A stretch of 23,305 nucleotides of DNA from the UHGV virus genome UHGV-0105868; one strand, 5' to 3'. The first letter of the stretch is position 1. Every line of letters starts with the position of its first letter. Under the pieces are notes generated by a model, which saw nothing but the letters and a program-made list of their open reading frames with translations, had not been told where the DNA came from and did no database searches. The position numbers and the translations under genes are program-made. Source of the DNA: a virus. Positions 5,276-18,116 of the stretch are shown here, one piece after another.

Positions 5276-6129
5276 GCACCATCCTGAAATGGGCGGGAAA
5301 TAAAACCGCCATAATGTCCGAACTGAAAAAGCATCTTCCTGCTGGCCCGCGACTGGTTGAACCTTTCGCGGGTTCCTGTGCAGTGATGATGGAGACGGAT
5401 TACCCCAGCTATCTTGTTGCGGATATTAATCCTGATTTAATCAACCTCTATAAAAAGGTTGCTGCTGATTGTGAGGCGTTTATATCTCGTGCCAGAGCTT
5501 TATTTGAGGACGCAAACAGGGAGGTGACTTATTACAACATAAGGTAGGAGTTTAATTACTCAACTGAAATTACTGATTTCATGAAAGCGGTATATTTCCT
5601 GTATCTCAATCGTCACGGTTACCGTGGGTTATGTCGTTATAACAAGAGCGGGCATTTCAACATTCCATACGGTAATTATAAAAATCCGTATTTCCCTGAA
5701 AAAGAAATTCGCGCATTTGCAGAGAAAGCCCAGCGAGCAACGTTTATCTGCGCCAGCTTTGATGAAACGCTGGCGATGCTGCAGGTGGGGGATGTGGTGT
5801 ATTGCGATCCGCCTTATGACGGTACGTTTTCCGGTTATCACACTGACGGCTTCACTGAAGATGACCAGTATCACCTGGCATCCGTTCTTGAACATCGGTC
5901 ATCAGAAGGACATCCGGTCATTGTTTCTAATAGTGACACATCCCTGATCCGTTCGCTGTATCGCAATTTCACTCACCACTACATCAAGGCAAAACGCAGC
6001 ATTGGCGTGTCAGCTGGCGAGAGTAAATCTGCAACAGAAATCATCGCTGTTTCTGGGGCGCGCTGCTGGGTGGGATTTGATCCTTCGCGTGGCGTGGATA
6101 GTTCTGCCGTGTACGGAGTGCGTGCATGA
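5272..6129 (+). pseudogene. dam: Dam-type N6-adenine DNA methyltransferase interrupted by an in-frame amber codon (TAG at 5545..5547)
   Basis: N-terminal part has …ILKWAGNK… and EPFAGS (motif I). C-terminal part has …[15 protein letters not shown]… and DPPY (motif IV). The two track ORFs (ending 5547, starting 5581) are in the same frame. Reading through the TAG gives [27 protein letters not shown], which aligns with E. coli Dam (…YYQFREEFNKSQDPFRRAVLFLYLNR…) with the stop at a Glu position. GGAGG RBS before 5272. Confidence 0.8.
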
Positions 6130-8540
6130 GCCATGCTGATATGAACAACTGCAGCGGCTTTAACGAGGCCGCCGCAGCATTCTCATGGAACAGCCCGAAA
6201 AAGGCTATTAACCCTTATCTGGACCCGGCGGAAGTTGCGCCGGTTTCTGCGCTTTCAAACCTGATCACTCTGTACGCTGTCGATAACGAGCAGGAACAAC
6301 TGCGTCGCGAGGCACTGAGTGATCAGGTCTGGGAGCGTTATTTCTTTAATGAATCCCGTGATCCTGTTCACCGCGAAATGGAGCAGGATAAGCTCATTAG
6401 CCGGGCAAAGCTGGCGCATGAGCAGCAGCGTTTTAATCCAGATATGGTCATTCTGGCGGACGTCAATGCCCAGCCTTCCCATATCAGCAAGCCGCTGATG
6501 CAACGTATTGAATACTTCAGCAGCCTGGGCAGGCCAAAGGCTTATTCCCGCTATTTGCGTGAGACGATTAAGCCATGTCTGGAACGACTGGAGCATGTAC
6601 GCGACTGTCAGCTATCCACTTCTTTTCGCTTTATGGCAAGCCATGAAGGGCTGGACGGCCTGCTGATCCTGCCTGAAATGAGTCAGGATCAGGTGAAGCG
6701 CCTGTCTACCCTTGTCGCCGCGCATATGAGCATGTGCCTTGATGCAGCTTGTGGTGATTTGTATGCCACCGATGACGTTAAGCCAGAAGAAATCCGCAAG
6801 ACATGGGAAAAGGTGGCAGCGGAAACCCTGCGTCTGGATGTTATCCCGCCTGCGTTTGAGCAACTCCGTCGGAAAAGAAACCGCCGTAAACCCGTGCCTT
6901 ATGAACTCATTCCGGGTTCGCTGGCGCGTATGTTATGCGCCGACTGGTGGTATCGGAAATTATGGAAGATGCGTTGCGAATGGCGGGAAGAGCAGTTGCG
7001 TGCTGTTTGCCTGGTCAGCAAAAAAGCATCTCCCTATGTCAGCTATGAAGCCGTGATGCATAAACGTGAGCAGCGCCGTAAGTCGCTGGAGTTTTTCCGT
7101 TCTCATGAACTGGTGAACGAAGACGGCGACACGCTGGATATGGAAGACGTGGTAAACGCCAGCAGCAGCAACCCTGCGCATCGCCGCAATGAGATGATGG
7201 CCTGTGTTAAAGGTCTGGAGCTTATCGCGGAAATGCGCGGTGACTGCGCCGTTTTCTACACCATCACCTGTCCGTCACGTTTCCATTCCACGCTAAATAA
7301 CGGCAGGCCCAACCCGACCTGGACAAATGCGACGGTAAGACAAAGCAGTGATTATCTGGTCGGTATGTTTGCTGCATTTCGTAAGGCGATGCACAAAGCC
7401 GGATTGCGCTGGTATGGCGTGCGGGTGGCTGAGCCGCATCATGACGGTACAGTTCACTGGCACCTGTTGTGTTTTATGCGCAAAAAAGATCGCCGCGCCA
7501 TTACTGCTTTGTTGCGTAAGTTTGCCATTCGTGAAGACCGCGAGGAGCTGGGTAATAACACGGGACCACGCTTTAAGTCTGAGCTGATAAACCCGCGCAA
7601 AGGTACGCCAACAAGCTACATCGCGAAATACATCAGTAAGAACATTGACGGGCGTGGTCTGGCTGGCGAGATCAGCAAGGAAACGGGTAAATCCCTGCGT
7701 GATAACGCTGAATACGTTAATGCCTGGGCGTCTCTGCATCGTGTTCAGCAATTCCGCTTCTTTGGCATTCCGGGGCGTCAGGCTTACCGTGAACTGCGAT
7801 TGCTGGCTGGTCAGGCGGCAAGGCAACAGGGGGACAAAAAAGCAGGTGCGCCGGTACTGGATAACCCGCGTCTTGATGCCATCCTGGCCGCTGCTGATGC
7901 TGGTTGTTTTGCCACCTACATCATGAAGCAGGGCGGCGTACTGGTTCCCCGCAAATATCACCTCATCAGAACCGCTTATGAAATCAACGAAGAGCCGACC
8001 GCCTATGGCGATCACGGCATTCGTATTTATGGCATCTGGTCACCCATTGCAGAGGGCAAGATCTGCACTCATGCGGTGAAGTGGAAAATGGTTCGTAAGG
8101 CCGTTGACATTCAGGAGGCGGCAGCCGACCAGGGCGCTTGCGCCCCTTGGACTCGTGGCAATAACTGTCCCCTTGCTGAAAATTTGTACCAACAAGGGAA
8201 AGACAAATCAGCTGATGGGGATACCAGAACGGATATCACCCGTATGGATGACAAGGAGTTGCACGATTACCTGCACAGTATGAACAAAAAAGAACGCCGG
8301 GAACTGGCTGCAAGGTTACGCCTGGTGAAACCGAAACGGCGTAGAGACTACAAACAGCGAATTACAGACCATCAACGACAGCAGCTCGTCTATGAACTGA
8401 AGTCCAGAGGATTTGATGGCAGCGAGAAAGAGGTCGATTTACTCCTTCGCGGCGGCAGTATTCCGTCAGGAGCAGGCCTGCGTATCTTCTATCGGAACCA
8501 GCGTTTGCAGGAAGATGATAAGTGGCGGGATCTGTATTAA
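6126..8540 (+). CDS. A: Replication initiation protein A (rolling-circle nicking endonuclease, P2 gpA-like)
   Basis: 804 aa containing …[13 protein letters not shown]… (HxH metal motif) and …YIAKYISKN… (catalytic Tyr region). Start overlaps the dam stop (ATGA). Confidence 0.9.
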
Positions 8541-8632
8541 TTACGCGGGTTAACAATTCGTGCTCTTAATAATACCAGGCATATCAGGCTGATGAACGTA
8601 AAAAAACGTTTTACATCAGTAAGATTATTATA

Positions 8633-8652
8633 TACTGTAAATATAAACAGTG
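8633..8652 (+). promoter_or_regulatory. LexA (SOS) box TACTGTAAATATAAACAGTG overlapping a putative promoter
   Basis: CTGT-N8-ACAG with an AT-rich spacer, close to the consensus TACTGTATATATATACAGTA. Lies about 45 bp upstream of the 8694 start. Placement matches the LexA-controlled tum promoter of phage 186. Confidence 0.6.
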
Positions 8653-8693
8653 GTTATGTGTACAGTATTGCTTGTGGTGTCATAGGAGGAAAA

Positions 8694-8882
8694 ATGCAGG
8701 ACTATTTTTTGGAGTCTTTGAAGCTCCAGCGCATTGATTTTTTTCTTAAGCTTGTAGCGGCTAGTGAGTGTAGTGATGAAGAGAAGGGGCTGGCTCTGCA
8801 GTGGGTTTCTGAATTGACTGATGAACTCATGGCAAAAATCAGAAGCCACGAATACAACCGCTCAATGGATGTCATCAGCTGA
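8694..8882 (+). CDS. Small SOS-regulated protein (62 aa) at the tum antirepressor position
   Basis: ATG preceded by AGGAGG. Directly downstream of the LexA box. The protein itself is not recognised; the antirepressor role is inferred from position only. Confidence 0.45.
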   Translation: MQDYFLESLKLQRIDFFLKLVAASECSDEEKGLALQWVSELTDELMAKIRSHEYNRSMDVIS

Positions 8883-8892
8883 GGTGACTTTT

Positions 8893-9126
8893 ATGCGCAT
8901 TGAAATAATGATCGATAAAGAGCAGAAAATTAGCCAGTCTACCCTGGACGCCCTTGAATCCGAGCTTTACCGCAATCTGCGCCCCCTGTATCCCAAAACG
9001 GTAATTCGTATCCGCAAAGGTAGCTCTAACGGTGTGGAACTGACCGGACTGCAACTGGACGAAGAAAGAAAACAAGTGATGAAAATTATGCAGAAGGTGT
9101 GGGAAGACGACAGCTGGCTGCATTAA
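8893..9126 (+). CDS. DinI-like protein
   Basis: 77 aa, MRIEIMIDKEQKISQSTLDALESELYRNL…KVWEDDSWLH, resembling E. coli DinI (MRIEVTIAK…ALAGELSRR…ETWESADDWFVSE) in length and pattern. RBS GAGGTG. Confidence 0.75.
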   Translation: MRIEIMIDKEQKISQSTLDALESELYRNLRPLYPKTVIRIRKGSSNGVELTGLQLDEERKQVMKIMQKVWEDDSWLH

Positions 9127-9631
9127 GAAACGTTGCTGGCGTCTGAACTTGCTTCTGGCGTCAGCAAGGTTGAACAACGAGCTGTGCGAGGCGTTAGCCA
9201 TCTGATCAAAAGACATCAAATATCATATTGTATATCGTGGTTAAACGCTGGAAACAATCATTCCCGGTCAGAGGGGCTTCTTTCAATGTCCAAAAGAGTG
9301 AGATAGAGGATACAGGATGGGAAGAGCTTATGATGATTGTTCTTGGATTGACTTGGAATATTTGATGTCCATTATCTAATGGACTTGGTCTTGATAGTTA
9401 TCACGAAAGAGGAAGCCAACGTCATGTATTTGAAGAGTATCTCTTACCTTTTGATTAATTATTGTCCAAGTTTTTCAAAAGCTTCTTATCTGGCGGTCGA
9501 TACATGATTTACTGTTGGATATGGTATTTAAAATTAATCTTTACACTGTGGTATATGCAGAATAGGATATTATCAATACAATCAAACCGTTTTCATACGG
9601 TTGTTAATATTGCAATGTTATAGGTAATGTC

Positions 9632-10750
9632 ATGTATCTTTTCAAGTATTACCGTCCGGACTTCTTCTTCGAGAAAGCTATTCGTTATAATGAATTATAT
9701 TTTTCCGCTCCTGCGCAATTGAATGATCCTAATGATCTCAATATAGATTATCGTTTTGATAATAAATTGAAATTATGGGATATTTTATTGCGTTCTCCTT
9801 GCGATAAATCCTATGAAAATTTGAGTCACATATTAGATTTGAGTAATTTGAAGATACATAAGGGATTGAATCGTATTTTTAGAGGAAAAAAAATAAAAAG
9901 TAGCATTGAGTCATTAGATAGCCTGTTTGACTCACACGTTGATGAGATACGTAAGATCATAAATGATGGTTTACTACCTATCAATGTGATTAATTCCGCT
10001 ATTTATGGGAATATTCCTGAACCACGCCAATTTTTGGTCTCACTTTGCGAGAACAGTATCAAAGAAAGGTTGTATAGGAAAATAGTTCCTGCAGTATTCA
10101 GTGTGTCATTTTCAGCTAATGCGTTAGATCGTATGATGTGGGCGCATTATGCTGCAGGCTTTAGTGGTTGTGTTGTGATTTATGAAACGCAGGATTTTAA
10201 TATTAATGGCGTGCCACATCCTGGAATGAAGCTAAGAGAAAATTTATTTTCATCAGATAAATTTAATTTTCCAGTTAAGCAAATAAAATATAGTAATCAG
10301 GCTAAAGAGGTTTCACTTCTAGACCCAAGCGCAAATGTTGCAGAGTTATTTTTAACTAAAAATAGATTTTGGAGATATGAAGCTGAATATCGAATGTTTA
10401 TTCCAGAGGCAAATGCAGGAATAGGGAGTGAGCGGCATGTTCAAAGACGCGTAAATCGAAATATTGGACATATTTTTCATCATGATGCTAATGTTGTTAA
10501 AGGGATCATTTTTGGTCCTAGAATGTGTGAAATGAAAAAAGAAAGCATATGGAATTGTATCAAGTCAAATATGGAGAATTCAAATTCAACAATATGTTAT
10601 TTTTTTGACTCTGAGTTATCAGCATCAGGAAAGATTACTATTTCAAAAGGGCAACGAGCGGAAAAAATGAAAAATTTCCCTTTGTTCAGGAACAAGTTAA
10701 GTCAGACGGAAATGGCTAAAGTTTTGAAGGAAATTGGCATTACGAACTAA
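9632..10750 (+). CDS. AT-rich cargo protein (372 aa) with DUF2971-like N-terminal motif; candidate defence / abortive-infection gene
   Basis: Long ORF in a visibly AT-rich region, unlike the GC-richer phage backbone. N-terminus LFKYYRPDFFFEKAIRYNELYFSAPAQLNDPNDL and a later …SFSANALDRMMWAHYAAGFSGCVVIY… resemble the DUF2971 family signature as I remember it. Function unknown. Confidence 0.8.
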   Translation: MYLFKYYRPDFFFEKAIRYNELYFSAPAQLNDPNDLNIDYRFDNKLKLWDILLRSPCDKSYENLSHILDLSNLKIHKGLNRIFRGKKIKSSIESLDSLFDSHVDEIRKIINDGLLPINVINSAIYGNIPEPRQFLVSLCENSIKERLYRKIVPAVFSVSFSANALDRMMWAHYAAGFSGCVVIYETQDFNINGVPHPGMKLRENLFSSDKFNFPVKQIKYSNQAKEVSLLDPSANVAELFLTKNRFWRYEAEYRMFIPEANAGIGSERHVQRRVNRNIGHIFHHDANVVKGIIFGPRMCEMKKESIWNCIKSNMENSNSTICYFFDSELSASGKITISKGQRAEKMKNFPLFRNKLSQTEMAKVLKEIGITN

Positions 10751-10816
10751 CCTAACAACAGTGCATGCCTATGCTGCCTGAATTTGCATGACCGTTTGAG
10801 GATCGTTTTTGCTAAG

Positions 10817-10840
10817 GCCCGCCAGAACTGGCGGGCTTTT
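10817..10840 (+). terminator. Rho-independent terminator (gcccgcc-agaact-ggcgggc-TTTT)
   Basis: 7-bp GC stem, 6-nt loop and a T-run, 66 bp downstream of the 9632..10750 stop. Confidence 0.6.
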
Positions 10841-10885
10841 GCGTGGATCAGGCACCTGCATGAAAACCACTACACAAAGCGGGCA

Positions 10886-10904
10886 GGCGTGGCGGGGATA
10901 CGAG
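10886..10904. other. Candidate cos site (19-nt cohesive-end region GGCGTGGCGGGGATACGAG)
   Basis: The first 13 nt match the P2/186 cohesive-end sequences as I remember them (P2 GGCGAGGCGGGGAAAGCAC; 186 GGCGTGGCGGGGAAAGCAT). Sits in a short GC-rich block between the two AT-rich cargo genes, between gene A and the 3' end of Q, where cos lies in P2-like prophages. Confidence 0.4.
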
Positions 10905-11005
10905 CGCGCGCAACAGTGTAACAATCTGGATCTAATGTGATATAGTTACTGTAAATATTATTAATTATTCTTATATGCATTATTAAATATTTTAATGGAG
11001 CGTTT

Positions 11006-12679
11006 ATGGAAAAATATCAAGATGAGGAATATGTAGACGATTTAACTGAGCGTGTTTTTCTCATTAAGCAACAACTGGAAGCGGGAAAACTAAAAATAGC
11101 TCATCATCTTGTAGAAGGTTTTATTGAAAGTTTTAAAAGAATAAGGCTGCGACAGGATGGTAAAGTTGACCCTTCTACTGTTGATGGCAGAATAAGGGCT
11201 ATGGGAGCAGCGGTTAATCACTTTTTAGAAAGAGAAGATATAAAAAACAAATACTCTATTCAGGACTTGCAAAGTTCTTACTTTAATATTCTTTTTAGTA
11301 ATTTTGGCGAGTTGTTTTATCTGATGAAAAAAACTAATGCAACGCCACATAAAGCATCAAGTTTTTTTTCTCAACAAGAAGAATATGTTAAGCAAATAGA
11401 AGGTGTTTTTCCTGAGTTATATAATCAGGTAATAGAGTTTTGGCAGGTAACATCCGATATTGGTGTAATACATTTGCAGGATGGTTCTCAGTTTAAAGCT
11501 AATTTTTCTGGTGACTTATTTCCTGCATTTGATGAGAATGCTGTCTCTATTGCAGGGTTGTATGTTGATACTATTTCACTTCCATGTCCTATATTAAGAG
11601 TCGGTCGTCTCTATGAAAAGTCAGATAAGGCTGAGTTTACAAGGATACTTCTGAAGCATGTCCTAACATGTATGACATATAAAGAAGTAGCGCTTGAAGA
11701 TATAGAGCCAGCAATAGTATTAATTTTGCCGGATAGAAGAGATTTTGAAACTGAGAGCAAAAAAAATTTGATGAGTTTTTGTGAGCCTTATGCTCTGACT
11801 CATGCGCAATATCTCTATGATCGACGGTTCGAAAGCTACGATGAATTTCAAGATTTTAGTTATTCGATGAATGATATTGATGCTGTTCTTAAAAATATTA
11901 AGAGAGCAGATAGACTTATTTTTGATACAGCATGGGGGCTAAATCCAAAAACTCAATTAGAAAAACTACTATCTGATAAAAAAAGAATATCACGTAATGT
12001 TGTTGGTGATCATGCTGGAATGGAGGTTTTCCTTTCCTGCATTGGAAGAATGCCGCAAGCCTATTCAGCAAAATGTAATGCACAAGAACTTGGTAGTACT
12101 CCATATATAAATGCAGACACATCTTGGCTCTATTATACTTGGCTTATTGAGTACGAATCTCTTAATTTTGATGTCAATGATATTGAACTAAAAAATTTGC
12201 ATATGGTTCATGCGTTATCTGCTGGTATGCAAGATGGTTTTTCATGGTTAGGAAATGTACCGGTCAATAAAATAATTGAGTTGAGACGTAACAAATTGAT
12301 GGAGGATGTAAGATCCATCTTATCAAATGGTGTTGACTCTTTAATCAATTCTTCGGCAGAGAGCTTTTCGAGGACAACGCAAAAAGTAATTGATAATGTA
12401 GACCGGGCTTTTATTGAACATCAAAGGATTCTTGCAAAAGCCCAAAAAGAGAAATTGAGAATTTACGGACTGGATGTCCTACCATGTATCGCAAATGGTG
12501 CTATAGCAATTGCTGGAGCGCTGACTGGCAATACTACTTTAGCGGCGTTAAGTGCAGGCCTTGGAGTAATAGGTATTCCGAGTATTAGTGATATCAAATC
12601 TAAATTTAAGCAGAGGCAAGAGAAGCTTGATGCCTATCAACGTTCTGTTACAGGTATACTCTTTAGCCATAAATCTTAA
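11006..12679 (+). CDS. AT-rich cargo protein (557 aa), unknown function, C-terminal hydrophobic Gly/Ala-rich segment; candidate defence / abortive-infection effector
   Basis: Long AT-rich ORF with a GGAG RBS. No motif recognised in the mostly soluble-looking body. Near the C-terminus is a hydrophobic stretch, …LPCIANGAIAIAGALTGNTTLAALSAGLGVIGIPSI…, long enough for one or two membrane helices. Confidence 0.8.
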   Translation: MEKYQDEEYVDDLTERVFLIKQQLEAGKLKIAHHLVEGFIESFKRIRLRQDGKVDPSTVDGRIRAMGAAVNHFLEREDIKNKYSIQDLQSSYFNILFSNFGELFYLMKKTNATPHKASSFFSQQEEYVKQIEGVFPELYNQVIEFWQVTSDIGVIHLQDGSQFKANFSGDLFPAFDENAVSIAGLYVDTISLPCPILRVGRLYEKSDKAEFTRILLKHVLTCMTYKEVALEDIEPAIVLILPDRRDFETESKKNLMSFCEPYALTHAQYLYDRRFESYDEFQDFSYSMNDIDAVLKNIKRADRLIFDTAWGLNPKTQLEKLLSDKKRISRNVVGDHAGMEVFLSCIGRMPQAYSAKCNAQELGSTPYINADTSWLYYTWLIEYESLNFDVNDIELKNLHMVHALSAGMQDGFSWLGNVPVNKIIELRRNKLMEDVRSILSNGVDSLINSSAESFSRTTQKVIDNVDRAFIEHQRILAKAQKEKLRIYGLDVLPCIANGAIAIAGALTGNTTLAALSAGLGVIGIPSISDIKSKFKQRQEKLDAYQRSVTGILFSHKS

Positions 12680-12685
12680 TGTAGA

Positions 12686-12710
12686 GGGCCGAGGTATTCG
12701 GCCCTTAGTT
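12686..12710 (+). terminator. Rho-independent terminator (gggccga-ggtat-tcggccc then T-rich) between convergent genes
   Basis: 7-bp GC-rich stem and 5-nt loop followed by ttagtttta, immediately after the 557-aa ORF stop and before the Q stop. Confidence 0.55.
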
Positions 12711-13742
12711 TTATATGAAACTGTATGGCATGAATTTTATTATGTCATCTTTGAGCCATTTATTGAGTTCTTCTATTCTGTTTTGTAGCGGTATCAATTC
12801 ATTACGCATAAAAACCTTACTAGCCTTCTCCACATCCCCAAATCCCCCAACATTATTCGGTATTATCCCCATCATTTGCGGCGGCACTCGGTGTGCTGCC
12901 ATCATGTCATCCCGGCTCACGTTCTTGATATTCAAAAATTCATCCTTTGCCGCGACTTCTGACAGAGGAATAATCTGAAGCCCGTCCTTTTTGCCGTTAG
13001 GCGAGTACATAAACAGGTTGCGGAAGTTGCCAGGGCCTTTGGCGCTTTTCATCGCATTGCGGAGGTTGTTCACGTCCTCCTGGTTCTGCGCGGCATCGGT
13101 CATGTACATGATGAAGCCAGCATGACTGCCGTTAATGTAATACTTTCGGCGGAACAGCGTGGCGGACTCGTTGAGCAGGGCTGACGGAATGGCAGAAAGA
13201 TAACCGGGCAGGCCGTAGATCTCCTGGTTGATGTCCGGTTCCATCAGATGAAAGATGCTGCCTTTCGTGAACTGATATGGCTGCGTGGTCATACCGTATT
13301 GCACAAACCAGTAGGTATCCAGGTCTAACCCGCGTCGGGTGTATTTTGCCAGGGCAGGTTCAAGGGCGATAACTTCACCGAAGCGGTTCGTGCGTTTCTC
13401 CAGGTAGGCGTTACCAAATACCAGATAGTCCTGAACAAAACGCGAAAAAGCCTGCTGGCTGAGCAGCGGGTGAGGGATGTAGGTGCTGGTCAGAATGTTG
13501 CACTTTACTGCAATCGGGGAACTATGATGCACGGCAGCGCGGAAGGTGCGCGCCAGTCCGTCAAAGCTGACGGGCGGTTCATACCAGCGGTCCATCTGTA
13601 CGCATTCCACATAATCCAGCAGTTCTCGGCGGTCCAGAACAGGAACGGGATCGCCGAAGCTGAATGCTTCGGCTGTAGTTTGACTTTTAAGCTGGATCTG
13701 TTTCGTCGCCGCAGCGCGGTTCTTCTTACTCTTTCCCATCAA
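12711..13742 (-). CDS. Q: Portal protein (P2 gpQ-like)
   Basis: 343 aa at the P2 gene Q position and orientation (3' end toward cos, divergent from the head genes). Confidence 0.85.
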   Translation of the reverse strand: MMGKSKKNRAAATKQIQLKSQTTAEAFSFGDPVPVLDRRELLDYVECVQMDRWYEPPVSFDGLARTFRAAVHHSSPIAVKCNILTSTYIPHPLLSQQAFSRFVQDYLVFGNAYLEKRTNRFGEVIALEPALAKYTRRGLDLDTYWFVQYGMTTQPYQFTKGSIFHLMEPDINQEIYGLPGYLSAIPSALLNESATLFRRKYYINGSHAGFIMYMTDAAQNQEDVNNLRNAMKSAKGPGNFRNLFMYSPNGKKDGLQIIPLSEVAAKDEFLNIKNVSRDDMMAAHRVPPQMMGIIPNNVGGFGDVEKASKVFMRNELIPLQNRIEELNKWLKDDIIKFMPYSFI

Positions 13743-17407: not shown

Positions 17408-17623
17408 ATGACGCTTGAGCGAATCAGCGCCTTTATCACGTATTGCATCGCCGTCGTGCTGGCCTGGCTGGGCGATTTGTCCATCAAGGATGCCTCAACG
17501 CTGGGCGGCCTGATGATCGGTGTGCTGATGCTGGCTATCAACTGGTACTACAAACACAAAGCCTACCAGCTTCTGCGCGACGGGCAGATCTCGCGGGAGG
17601 ACTATGAATCCATCAATCGTTAA
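17408..17623 (+). CDS. Holin
   Basis: 71 aa with two hydrophobic helices (…ISAFITYCIAVVLAWLG… and …LGGLMIGVLMLAINWYY…) and a charged C-terminus. Immediately upstream of the lysozyme gene. Confidence 0.7.
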   Translation: MTLERISAFITYCIAVVLAWLGDLSIKDASTLGGLMIGVLMLAINWYYKHKAYQLLRDGQISREDYESINR

Positions 17624-18116
17624 ACGCTGCCTTGTCGGGGCCGTGCTGGCTATTGCTGCCACGCTGCCGGGGTTTCAGCAGCTTCACACCTCCGAGGAGG
17701 GACTGAAACTGATCGCCGATTATGAAGGCTGTCGTCTGCAGCCGTATCAGTGCAGCGCGGGTGTCTGGACCGACGGCATTGGTAATACGTCGGGCGTCAT
17801 TCCCGGCAAAATTATTACGGAACGACAGGCAGCTGAAGGGCTGATCTCCAACGTGCTACGAGTGGAGCGGGCGCTGGAAAGGTGTGTGAAGCAACAGCCG
17901 CCGCAGAAGGTGTATGACGCTACGGTGTCGTTTGCCTTCAACGTGGGGACGGGCAATGCCTGTAGTTCCACGCTGGTGAAATTGCTCAATCAGCGGCGCT
18001 GGGCGGATGCATGCCGACAGTTGCCGCGCTGGGTTTATGTGAAAGGTGTTTTTAATCAGGGGCTGGATAACCGCCGTGCGCGGGAGATGGCCTGGTGTTT
18101 ACAGGGAGCAAACTGA
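17604..18116 (+). CDS. Endolysin (lysozyme), probably a signal-anchor-release (SAR) type
   Basis: 170 aa. N-terminus has a weakly hydrophobic Gly/Ala-rich segment (CLVGAVLAIAATLPG). Then …DYEGCRLQPYQCSAGVWTDGIGNT…, a Glu-x8-Cys/Asp-x5-Thr lysozyme catalytic pattern. Confidence 0.8.
   Translation: MNPSIVKRCLVGAVLAIAATLPGFQQLHTSEEGLKLIADYEGCRLQPYQCSAGVWTDGIGNTSGVIPGKIITERQAAEGLISNVLRVERALERCVKQQPPQKVYDATVSFAFNVGTGNACSSTLVKLLNQRRWADACRQLPRWVYVKGVFNQGLDNRRAREMAWCLQGAN

Follow-up and report, generated by a model that had tools for sequence, protein, structure and literature searches.

A remote relative of DitB with a C-terminal hydrophobic hairpin at the cos-proximal cargo site of a P2-like Escherichia coli prophage: a candidate single-protein anti-phage factor

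The stretch of DNA analysed here (UHGV virus genome UHGV-0105868, 23,305 nt; hereafter the window) is a P2-like prophage of Escherichia coli, which carries between its cos site and its portal gene, at 11006-12679 on the plus strand, a gene for a protein of 557 residues. Most likely, this gene forms a self-contained cassette of the cargo (moron) type in the cos-proximal hotspot of P2-like phages and encodes a single-protein anti-phage factor. On the evidence of profile comparisons, the body of the protein (residues ~76-473) is accepted as remotely homologous to DitB, which together with DitA makes up the defence system Aditi, and not as a member of that system itself, because no DitA gene or DitA-like segment was found and the architecture differs. 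The best overall explanation, put forward tentatively, is that of a membrane-associated, single-chain, Aditi-like anti-phage protein.

The DitB-like body and the protein family

Aditi was described as a system of two proteins (DitA and DitB) of unknown function and without any HHpred hit (Millman et al. 2022, bioRxiv 10.1101/2022.05.11.491447); the supplement of 10.1101/2022.05.11.491447 contains the verified DitA and DitB sequences of Saccharibacillus kuerlensis. In the genome of S. kuerlensis, DitA is a DUF5677 protein encoded immediately upstream of DitB.

A reading made from the sequence alone (the sequence-only reading) had placed the 557-residue protein in an unknown family, which has to be revised: the PADLOC model of DitB, a hidden Markov model (HMM) of our own and a comparison of family profiles by hhalign all relate it remotely to DitB. 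The PADLOC model matches the protein with an expectation value (E) of 2.7e-10 (37.6 bits), residues 195-452 corresponding to positions 95-344 of the 361 in the profile, and it matches four other members of the family with E 3e-6 to 6e-3. For the further comparisons, 35 DitB relatives were collected, 24 were aligned together with a second published DitB, and the resulting profile was compared with the 557-residue family. Our DitB HMM (25 relatives) gives the protein 14.7 bits and the best family member 25.6 bits, and 23 of the 40 family sequences outscore the best of 1,000 shuffles (5.7 bits). In hhalign, the two family profiles align over 303 columns (residues 136-473 with DitB 33-358) with E 6.4e-4 and a probability of 28%; with greedy extension, residues 70-499 align with DitB 2-371, the first shared motif standing at residue 89. 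Several invariant residues coincide between the two families (557-residue family first): Q89-Y92-L96 with Q14-Y17-L21, F145-W146 with F43-W44, P195 with P95, P242 with L141-P142, Q351 with Q242, and P366 with P257. The homology is remote, the hhalign probability amounting to only 18-28%, which weighs against the overall explanation.

Concerning the second partner, an adjacent DitA gene (DUF5677, about 480 residues) was looked for at the locus and not found, neither the PADLOC model of DitA nor Pfam DUF5677 giving a match, and similarity of the 557-residue protein to DitA was likewise looked for and not found. In most genomes, the gene stands alone.

The coding sequence and the parts of its product are the following:

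11006-12679, plus strand: coding sequence of the 557-residue protein, stop codon included (ATG start; open reading frame list)
11006-11230, plus strand: N-terminal extension (residues 1-75), helical, well conserved, without DitB counterpart
11231-12424, plus strand: DitB-like body (residues ~76-473), delimited by the PADLOC model of DitB, hhalign, our DitB HMM and the alignment motifs
12467-12592, plus strand: Gly/Ala-rich hydrophobic helical hairpin (residues 488-529), from hydropathy, alignment and AlphaFold2 (AF2) model
12593-12676, plus strand: basic amphipathic C-terminal helix and end motif SPTGLLF (T549, G550, F553), from alignment and AF2 model

The open reading frame proposed by the sequence-only reading is confirmed by the list of reading frames, by RefSeq, which gives the gene with identical coordinates (WP_064770590.1, 'hypothetical protein'), and by its many relatives. 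To judge from 212 full-length relatives (about 556-560 residues) in the 90%-identity protein database and from 755 clusters at 50% identity, 11006-12679 is a real gene. Among the matches listed (120 of the 212), nearly all are full length (about 553-562 residues) and unnamed or hypothetical, and their sources are Enterobacterales, Aeromonas, Aquitalea and Electronema. The 755 clusters come from a profile search of 1.84 billion representatives at E<=1e-3; 266 of them remain at E<=1e-30.

An alignment of 40 family sequences has a mean column identity of 62%, with invariant motifs FxGDLFP (167-173), GLYVDTxxLPCP (184-195), KH (217-218), GRMPQA (347-352), TPxINAxTSW (365-374) and SWLGNVP (413-419), and with variable patches at residues 101-140, 241-260, 321-340 and 381-400. 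Relatives of about 25-30% identity still keep GLYxDT, GRxxQA and PxIxAxTSW. The N-terminal extension (mean column entropy 1.24) contains AF2 helices at 7-25 and 33-44. In line with the soluble appearance that the sequence-only reading had noted, the body is modelled as large, folded and mostly helical, with no hydrophobic span besides the tail. The AF2 model as a whole, a confident one (predicted local distance difference test score, pLDDT, 82.6), matches no solved structure.

Some distant relatives (P0231, P0237, P0173 and the like; 700-843 residues) possess 200-300 extra N-terminal residues. These were scanned for a fused domain and gave no Pfam match; with PADLOC, a weak Xre-type helix-turn-helix match and a weak Avs1c match were obtained, in one protein only. 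The long relatives may be fusions or may have mis-called starts.

Further searches returned no family. Pfam, NCBIfam and PHROGs contain no family match for the protein, in which the sequence-only reading had recognised no motif. The remote-homology and fold search proposed there yielded the DitB relation and no match in the PDB: against PDB sequences, the family profile finds similarities at chance level only (fumarase, E 0.045; haemagglutinin stalk/transmembrane region, E 0.08). Homology to a phage structural or packaging protein, which together with the lack of a predicted membrane segment was named there as refuting that reading, did not appear in the PHROGs and PDB searches, structural matches being short and below any accepted threshold. 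A weak lead to terminase nucleases (RNase H-like) was rejected: when modelled alone, residues 158-412 reach a pLDDT of 68 and lose their strands, and they are therefore not regarded as an independent domain. The protein matches no PADLOC model of a system validated in PMC9122126. In the literature searched, nothing was found on the accessions of the protein or on such a DitB homolog, nor on the mechanism of Aditi or the function of DUF5677.

The C-terminal hydrophobic hairpin

The hydrophobic tail that had been seen at about 12470-12590 corresponds to residues 488-529 (nt 12467-12592) and is conserved in all relatives aligned (40/40), with Kyte-Doolittle maxima between 1.5 and 2.15, compared with 1.34 in DitA and 1.49 in DitB; in DitB, the maximum lies inside the helix of the conserved QA motif and not in a tail. 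It is also kept in distant relatives (about 25-30% identity) with different N-termini. A long helix (residues 454-484) precedes the hairpin, whose first helix (~489-507; family mean Kyte-Doolittle 1.62) follows the invariant G488 and is connected by a G-N-P/T turn to a shorter helix (512-524) with the invariant G523, followed by the near-invariant P525. Invariant within the hairpin are G488, G498, L512 and G523; the small residues G, A, S and T make up 42-46% of it, and each of its flanks carries about 5 Lys/Arg per 15-16 residues. In the AF2 model, the hairpin helices extend over 491-507 and 510-521 at low pLDDT.

Using 19-residue windows, the Kyte-Doolittle maxima of the 557-residue protein are 1.62 at residue 488 and 1.59 at residue 512. 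When calibrated against proteins of the same prophage, the hairpin (1.62) equals LysB, comes near the holin (1.92) and lies above all soluble proteins (<=1.52). Judged by these values and by its conservation, the protein is probably membrane-associated. Several observations weigh against this: the Wimley-White octanol sums of the two helices (+1.7 to +2.8 kcal, with approximate scale values) are unfavourable for spontaneous insertion, the hairpin is marginal as a span, its second helix having only about 13 residues before the conserved proline, a conserved acidic residue occupies position 490, and the AF2 confidence is low exactly in this region. The earlier suggestion was that the tail is long enough for one or two membrane helices; it has two helices, and its hydrophobicity is borderline for a membrane span by both scales. 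A monotopic, re-entrant or oligomerisation-dependent hairpin fits better than two classical spans.

Residues 430-540 furthermore show a weak match to the PADLOC model of LeoBC (E 0.0033, LeoBC positions 392-509), which recurs in a second family member (E 0.018). The matched stalk region of LeoBC should include its predicted membrane-binding 'paddle'; the match is probably driven by composition. A dynamin-type GTPase was searched for in the 557-residue protein, and neither a Pfam GTPase or dynamin match at E<=1 nor a Walker A motif was found.

The cos-proximal slot and the distribution of the gene

The slot and the signals around the gene comprise the following features:

10760-10921, no strand: conserved cos-region block, common to other P2-like phages, left edge of the cargo
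10886-10904, no strand: cos core of 19 nt, GGCGTGGCGGGGATACGAG, from alignment to P2 cosR, GGCGAGGCGGGGAAAGCAC
10918-10946, plus strand: sigma-70-like promoter candidate from a consensus scan, ~60 bp 5' of the ATG
10997-11000, plus strand: ribosome-binding site GGAG, read from the sequence, 5 nt from the ATG
12684-12706, plus strand: terminator from a scan, a G+C-rich hairpin (10-pair stem, 6 G-C) followed by a T-run
12711-13739, minus strand: portal gene gpQ (RefSeq annotation), right border of the slot and outside the cargo

The candidate cos site of the sequence-only reading proved to be right, since 10886-10904 aligns with P2 cosR and so does the right-end flank next to it (~50 nt). In P2, cosL lies at 1-19, the terminator tQ at 160-181 and Q at 187-1221, such that 167 bp separate cosL from Q, whereas the corresponding distance in the window is 1.8 kb; together with the presence of the gene in 17 of 5,426 genomes, this bears out the view that it is an insertion at the left genome end. 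All partial matches in the phage collection cover query positions 1561-1722 only (window 10760-10921), and this block is present in Fels-2 and in Klebsiella and Yersinia phages, among other P2-like phages. Because the shared block ends at 10921, the cargo is taken to start at ~10922, ~17 bp past the cos core.

The order in the window is gpA (6126-8540), cos, the 557-residue protein gene, and the portal gene. The gpA-cos-gpQ locus of P2-like phages is a hotspot of anti-phage systems, whose cargo is not always defensive (Rousset et al. 2022, PMC9122126). By the locus definition of PMC9122126, the gene lies within it, between gpA and gpQ and adjoining cos, and it shares the patchy presence among related prophages and the atypical composition of such cargo, its G+C content being 0.34-0.36 compared with about 0.55 in the phage body and its morphogenesis genes. 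The locus table of PMC9122126 contains a row 'hypothetical + DinI + DUF2971 + hypothetical', in which the DUF2971 accession is the same as in the window; this row looks like the arrangement found here, in which case its last entry would be the 557-residue protein. No sign was seen in the text of PMC9122126 that the gene was cloned or tested.

For the distribution in E. coli, window region 9200-12750 was used as query. This region is 100% identical to five complete genomes, including strain p10A. The gene itself occurs, with >=99% identity throughout, in 17 of 5,426 complete genomes, adjacent to the portal gene in those inspected. Some part of the query matches in 1,254 E. coli records, presumably mostly due to the cos block alone, like all partial phage matches. 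On its left, the gene is flanked by cos and a DUF2971 gene, on its right by the portal gene. The DUF2971 gene is a second low-G+C cargo (9632-10750, plus strand) on the gpA side of cos, which encodes a protein of 372 residues matching the PADLOC candidate family PDC-S31 (E 3e-23) and phrog_1762. Linkage of the two genes was considered and rejected, as cos lies between them and most genomes with the 557-residue protein gene lack the DUF2971 gene. Because only five of the 17 carrier genomes show a DUF2971 gene left of cos, and because the order in CP019275 is DinI, cos, 557-residue protein gene, portal gene, the gene is regarded as a stand-alone unit; the two low-G+C genes of the window are therefore separate cargoes flanking cos. 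Two DUF2971 genes were also seen near a relative of 47% identity in an integrase/Ogr island (L028), probably a coincidence of two common hotspot cargoes.

In IMG/VR, 17 loci carry relatives, and 14 of them show the order cos (where findable), gene (plus strand), portal gene (minus strand), with 35-125 bp from gene to portal gene, 55-100% identity of the protein and 66-99% identity of the portal protein. In 13 of the 17 loci, the homolog is preceded by the cos block. Relatives occupy the same cos-portal slot in P2-like prophages of Serratia and Pantoea, and two relatives of 42% identity are reversed and situated between portal gene and gpA, one of them abutting gpA. Other relatives are found in integrase-bearing islands, and one is located at the border of an HP1-like prophage, beside a reverse-transcriptase gene. 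A relative from Aquitalea (L031 7001-8683; 44% identity) lies directly upstream of Gabija in a Tn7-like element. From its rarity, its relatives in the same slot and this Gabija/Tn7-like neighbourhood, the gene is considered a mobile single-gene cassette in the gpA-cos-gpQ hotspot. The Gabija operon of L031 consists of a GajA-like OLD-TOPRIM ATPase and a GajB-like UvrD helicase; on the other side of the relative, a UvrD-helicase/HNH pair is found, and the element has TniQ, TniB and a transposase.

A gene for 276 residues with a weak match to DUF5677, the DitA-type domain, was observed at L004 13869-14699 (also in L005 and L006), ~4 kb downstream of a relative of 45% identity and past helix-turn-helix and reverse-transcriptase genes; this gene may be what is left of a DitA-like partnership, or may be a further defence gene.

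Among 50,697 GenBank phage records, one carries the gene, and this record is a circular copy of the same prophage. In strain 13P477T, the P2-like element is deposited as a circular 'plasmid' of 37.4 kb (L001, CP019275.1) besides the chromosomal copy, which suggests an excised or replicating phage. In CP019275.1, the gene (8489-10163) is annotated as a frameshifted pseudogene, like several other genes there; since several genes of that record are affected, the frameshifts are probably sequencing errors.

Concerning expression, the promoter candidate is a pattern match (GTAACA, a spacer of 17 nt, TATAGT, TG-extended -10), promoter-like sites being no more numerous in the region than in shuffles in the consensus scan. 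Upstream of the gene, reading by eye, no late-promoter motif of the Ogr type (TGT-N12-ACA) was seen. The terminator and the end of the portal gene, which is convergent with the 557-residue protein gene, lie 5 bp apart, and the terminator is unlike P2 tQ in sequence; the portal protein of the window has 62% identity to P2 Q (tblastn).

Compared with p10A, the window lacks 1,567 bp between 15342 and 15343 (comprising the 5' end of the terminase ATPase gene, all of the scaffold gene gpO, and a 5' portion of the capsid gene) and 2,717 bp between 18776 and 18777 (with lysB/lysC, genes for the tail and for virion morphogenesis, V, W and the beginning of J). The 5,426 complete E. coli genomes contain neither of the two junctions. 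Either the prophage copy in the window has decayed, or it is an artefact of assembly or editing; the cargo region is not affected. In the p10A copy (L032 19173-19685, corresponding to window ~17604-18116), a lysozyme gene encodes a hydrophobic N-terminus (Kyte-Doolittle 1.64 at residue 5), which would be consistent with an endolysin of the signal-anchor-release type.

Candidate function and comparison with known systems

An anti-phage role of the protein is likely on the evidence of its DitB homology and genomic contexts. In the proposed mechanism, the hairpin would enter the inner membrane from the cytoplasmic side and tether the DitB-like body beneath the membrane; both hairpin ends would be cytoplasmic, because both flanks are strongly basic, and the C-terminal position of the hairpin suggests that insertion would be post-translational. 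The body would recognise a product or event of the infecting phage, and the protein would then act through its hairpin, whose small-residue, glycine-zipper-like faces might allow multiple copies to assemble as a leak or pore, such that the membrane potential collapses and the infection is aborted.

That the hairpin is a toxic effector is speculative and rather doubtful, and it is somewhat less probable still that the protein represents a one-polypeptide, membrane-tethered form of Aditi, in which the body senses infection and the glycine-zipper hairpin is a built-in killing device. Weighing against the explanation as a whole, the 557-residue family is known from sequences alone and Aditi needs, or at least comes with, DitA; a constitutive single pore-former without antitoxin would need tight self-inhibition; and in the 10.7-kb contig of the Electronema relative, none of the neighbours called is a phage or defence gene.

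Nothing computed separates the hairpin as effector from the hairpin as anchor. The protein might instead be a defence factor in which the hairpin is a mere anchor and the active part is the DitB-like body (an enzyme or binding protein); held to the inner side of the membrane, the body would intercept entering phage DNA or a phage membrane complex and exclude the phage without killing the host. This we consider a rather unlikely alternative to the explanation as a whole, though it draws on several observations: the body contains most of the invariant polar residues (D188, T189, R348, Q351, N369, S373, W374, R427), the motifs of which persist in distant relatives as in a binding or catalytic pocket; the hairpin is short and marginally hydrophobic, more like a monotopic anchor or a dynamin 'paddle', as in the LeoBC match; and DitB proteins work without such a hairpin. 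The invariant glycines and the terminal SPTGLLF, however, are conserved more tightly than a plain anchor requires.

Distinctly less probable is a lysogenic-conversion gene without role in defence, e.g., a membrane-remodelling, stress or colonisation factor benefiting the host. Cargo of the P2 hotspot is indeed not all defensive (PMC9122126), a prophage copy from which head genes seem to have gone missing still keeps the gene, and the Electronema relative stands in an ordinary chromosomal context; however, the protein has homology to a component of a validated defence system, defence contexts recur (Gabija, a reverse-transcriptase gene, AAA_15/21 ATPase cargo), and the protein has diverged far more than its flanks (55% identity, compared with 78-87% for the portal protein). 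A role in the phage's own cycle (packaging at cos, lysis timing or a virion component), for which the adjoining cos, portal and terminase genes might speak, is very improbable, as P2, the vast majority of P2-like prophages and all but one of the phage records lack the gene, and as the protein has no PHROG match, only short structural matches below threshold, and relatives outside phages.

Under the explanation preferred here, a membrane-associated, single-chain, Aditi-like anti-phage protein, what is known already are the defence cargo of the P2 hotspot and the relation to Aditi, and new are the single chain without DitA, the modules added at the N- and C-terminus and a fold without counterpart among solved structures. 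Aditi is a validated defence system without known fold or mechanism, and the gene provides it with a distant relative that would act, if it acts at all, as a single protein in E. coli and is borne by a well-understood phage. If the protein is protective, it would constitute a system that PADLOC (version 2.0.0) is unable to report as such, because DitA is missing, and it would show how a soluble defence protein can be rebuilt with a membrane module; if not, the gene is a further hotspot passenger without known role. Should a form of Aditi that kills by its hairpin be true, the mechanism and fold of Aditi would be open to direct genetics in E. coli and P2, and a new type of self-contained membrane abortive-infection protein with at least 755 sequence clusters would be at hand.

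Among the known systems closest to the protein is Aditi. Residues ~76-473 are remotely homologous to nearly the whole of DitB, invariant positions coincide, both proteins occur in defence and mobile contexts, and both are without recognisable domain or known mechanism. Despite this similarity, there are clear differences: the protein has 557 residues, whereas DitB has about 360-372 (no hydrophobic segment in DitB), sequence identity is about 16-19%, the 75-residue N-terminal extension and the C-terminal hydrophobic hairpin are both missing from DitA and DitB, and no DitA (DUF5677) gene is adjacent. Furthermore, the 557-residue family is proteobacterial and P2-phage-borne, whereas the DitB relatives with a source name, among those retrieved, are all Firmicutes.

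Like old, tin and other cargo of the P2 hotspot (PMC9122126), the gene occupies this locus as its own transcription unit with low G+C content and is patchily distributed among near-identical prophages; old and tin of P2, however, are situated on the gpA side of cos, whereas the gene studied here is on the portal side, where the packaged genome has its extreme left end. With the bacterial dynamin-like LeoBC / Eleos (PMC4159319), it shares a long helix, a glycine-rich hydrophobic tip and a return helix; since it has no GTPase domain or Walker A motif, this is an analogy of form only.

RexB and the transmembrane effectors of CBASS, Pycsar and retron systems possess clear multi-span helices and a separate sensor or signal. 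In common with such abortive-infection membrane effectors, the 557-residue protein would combine a hydrophobic module with a cytoplasmic sensing part to which the module is fused or paired; it differs from them in having the presumed sensor and a single, marginally hydrophobic hairpin fused in one chain.

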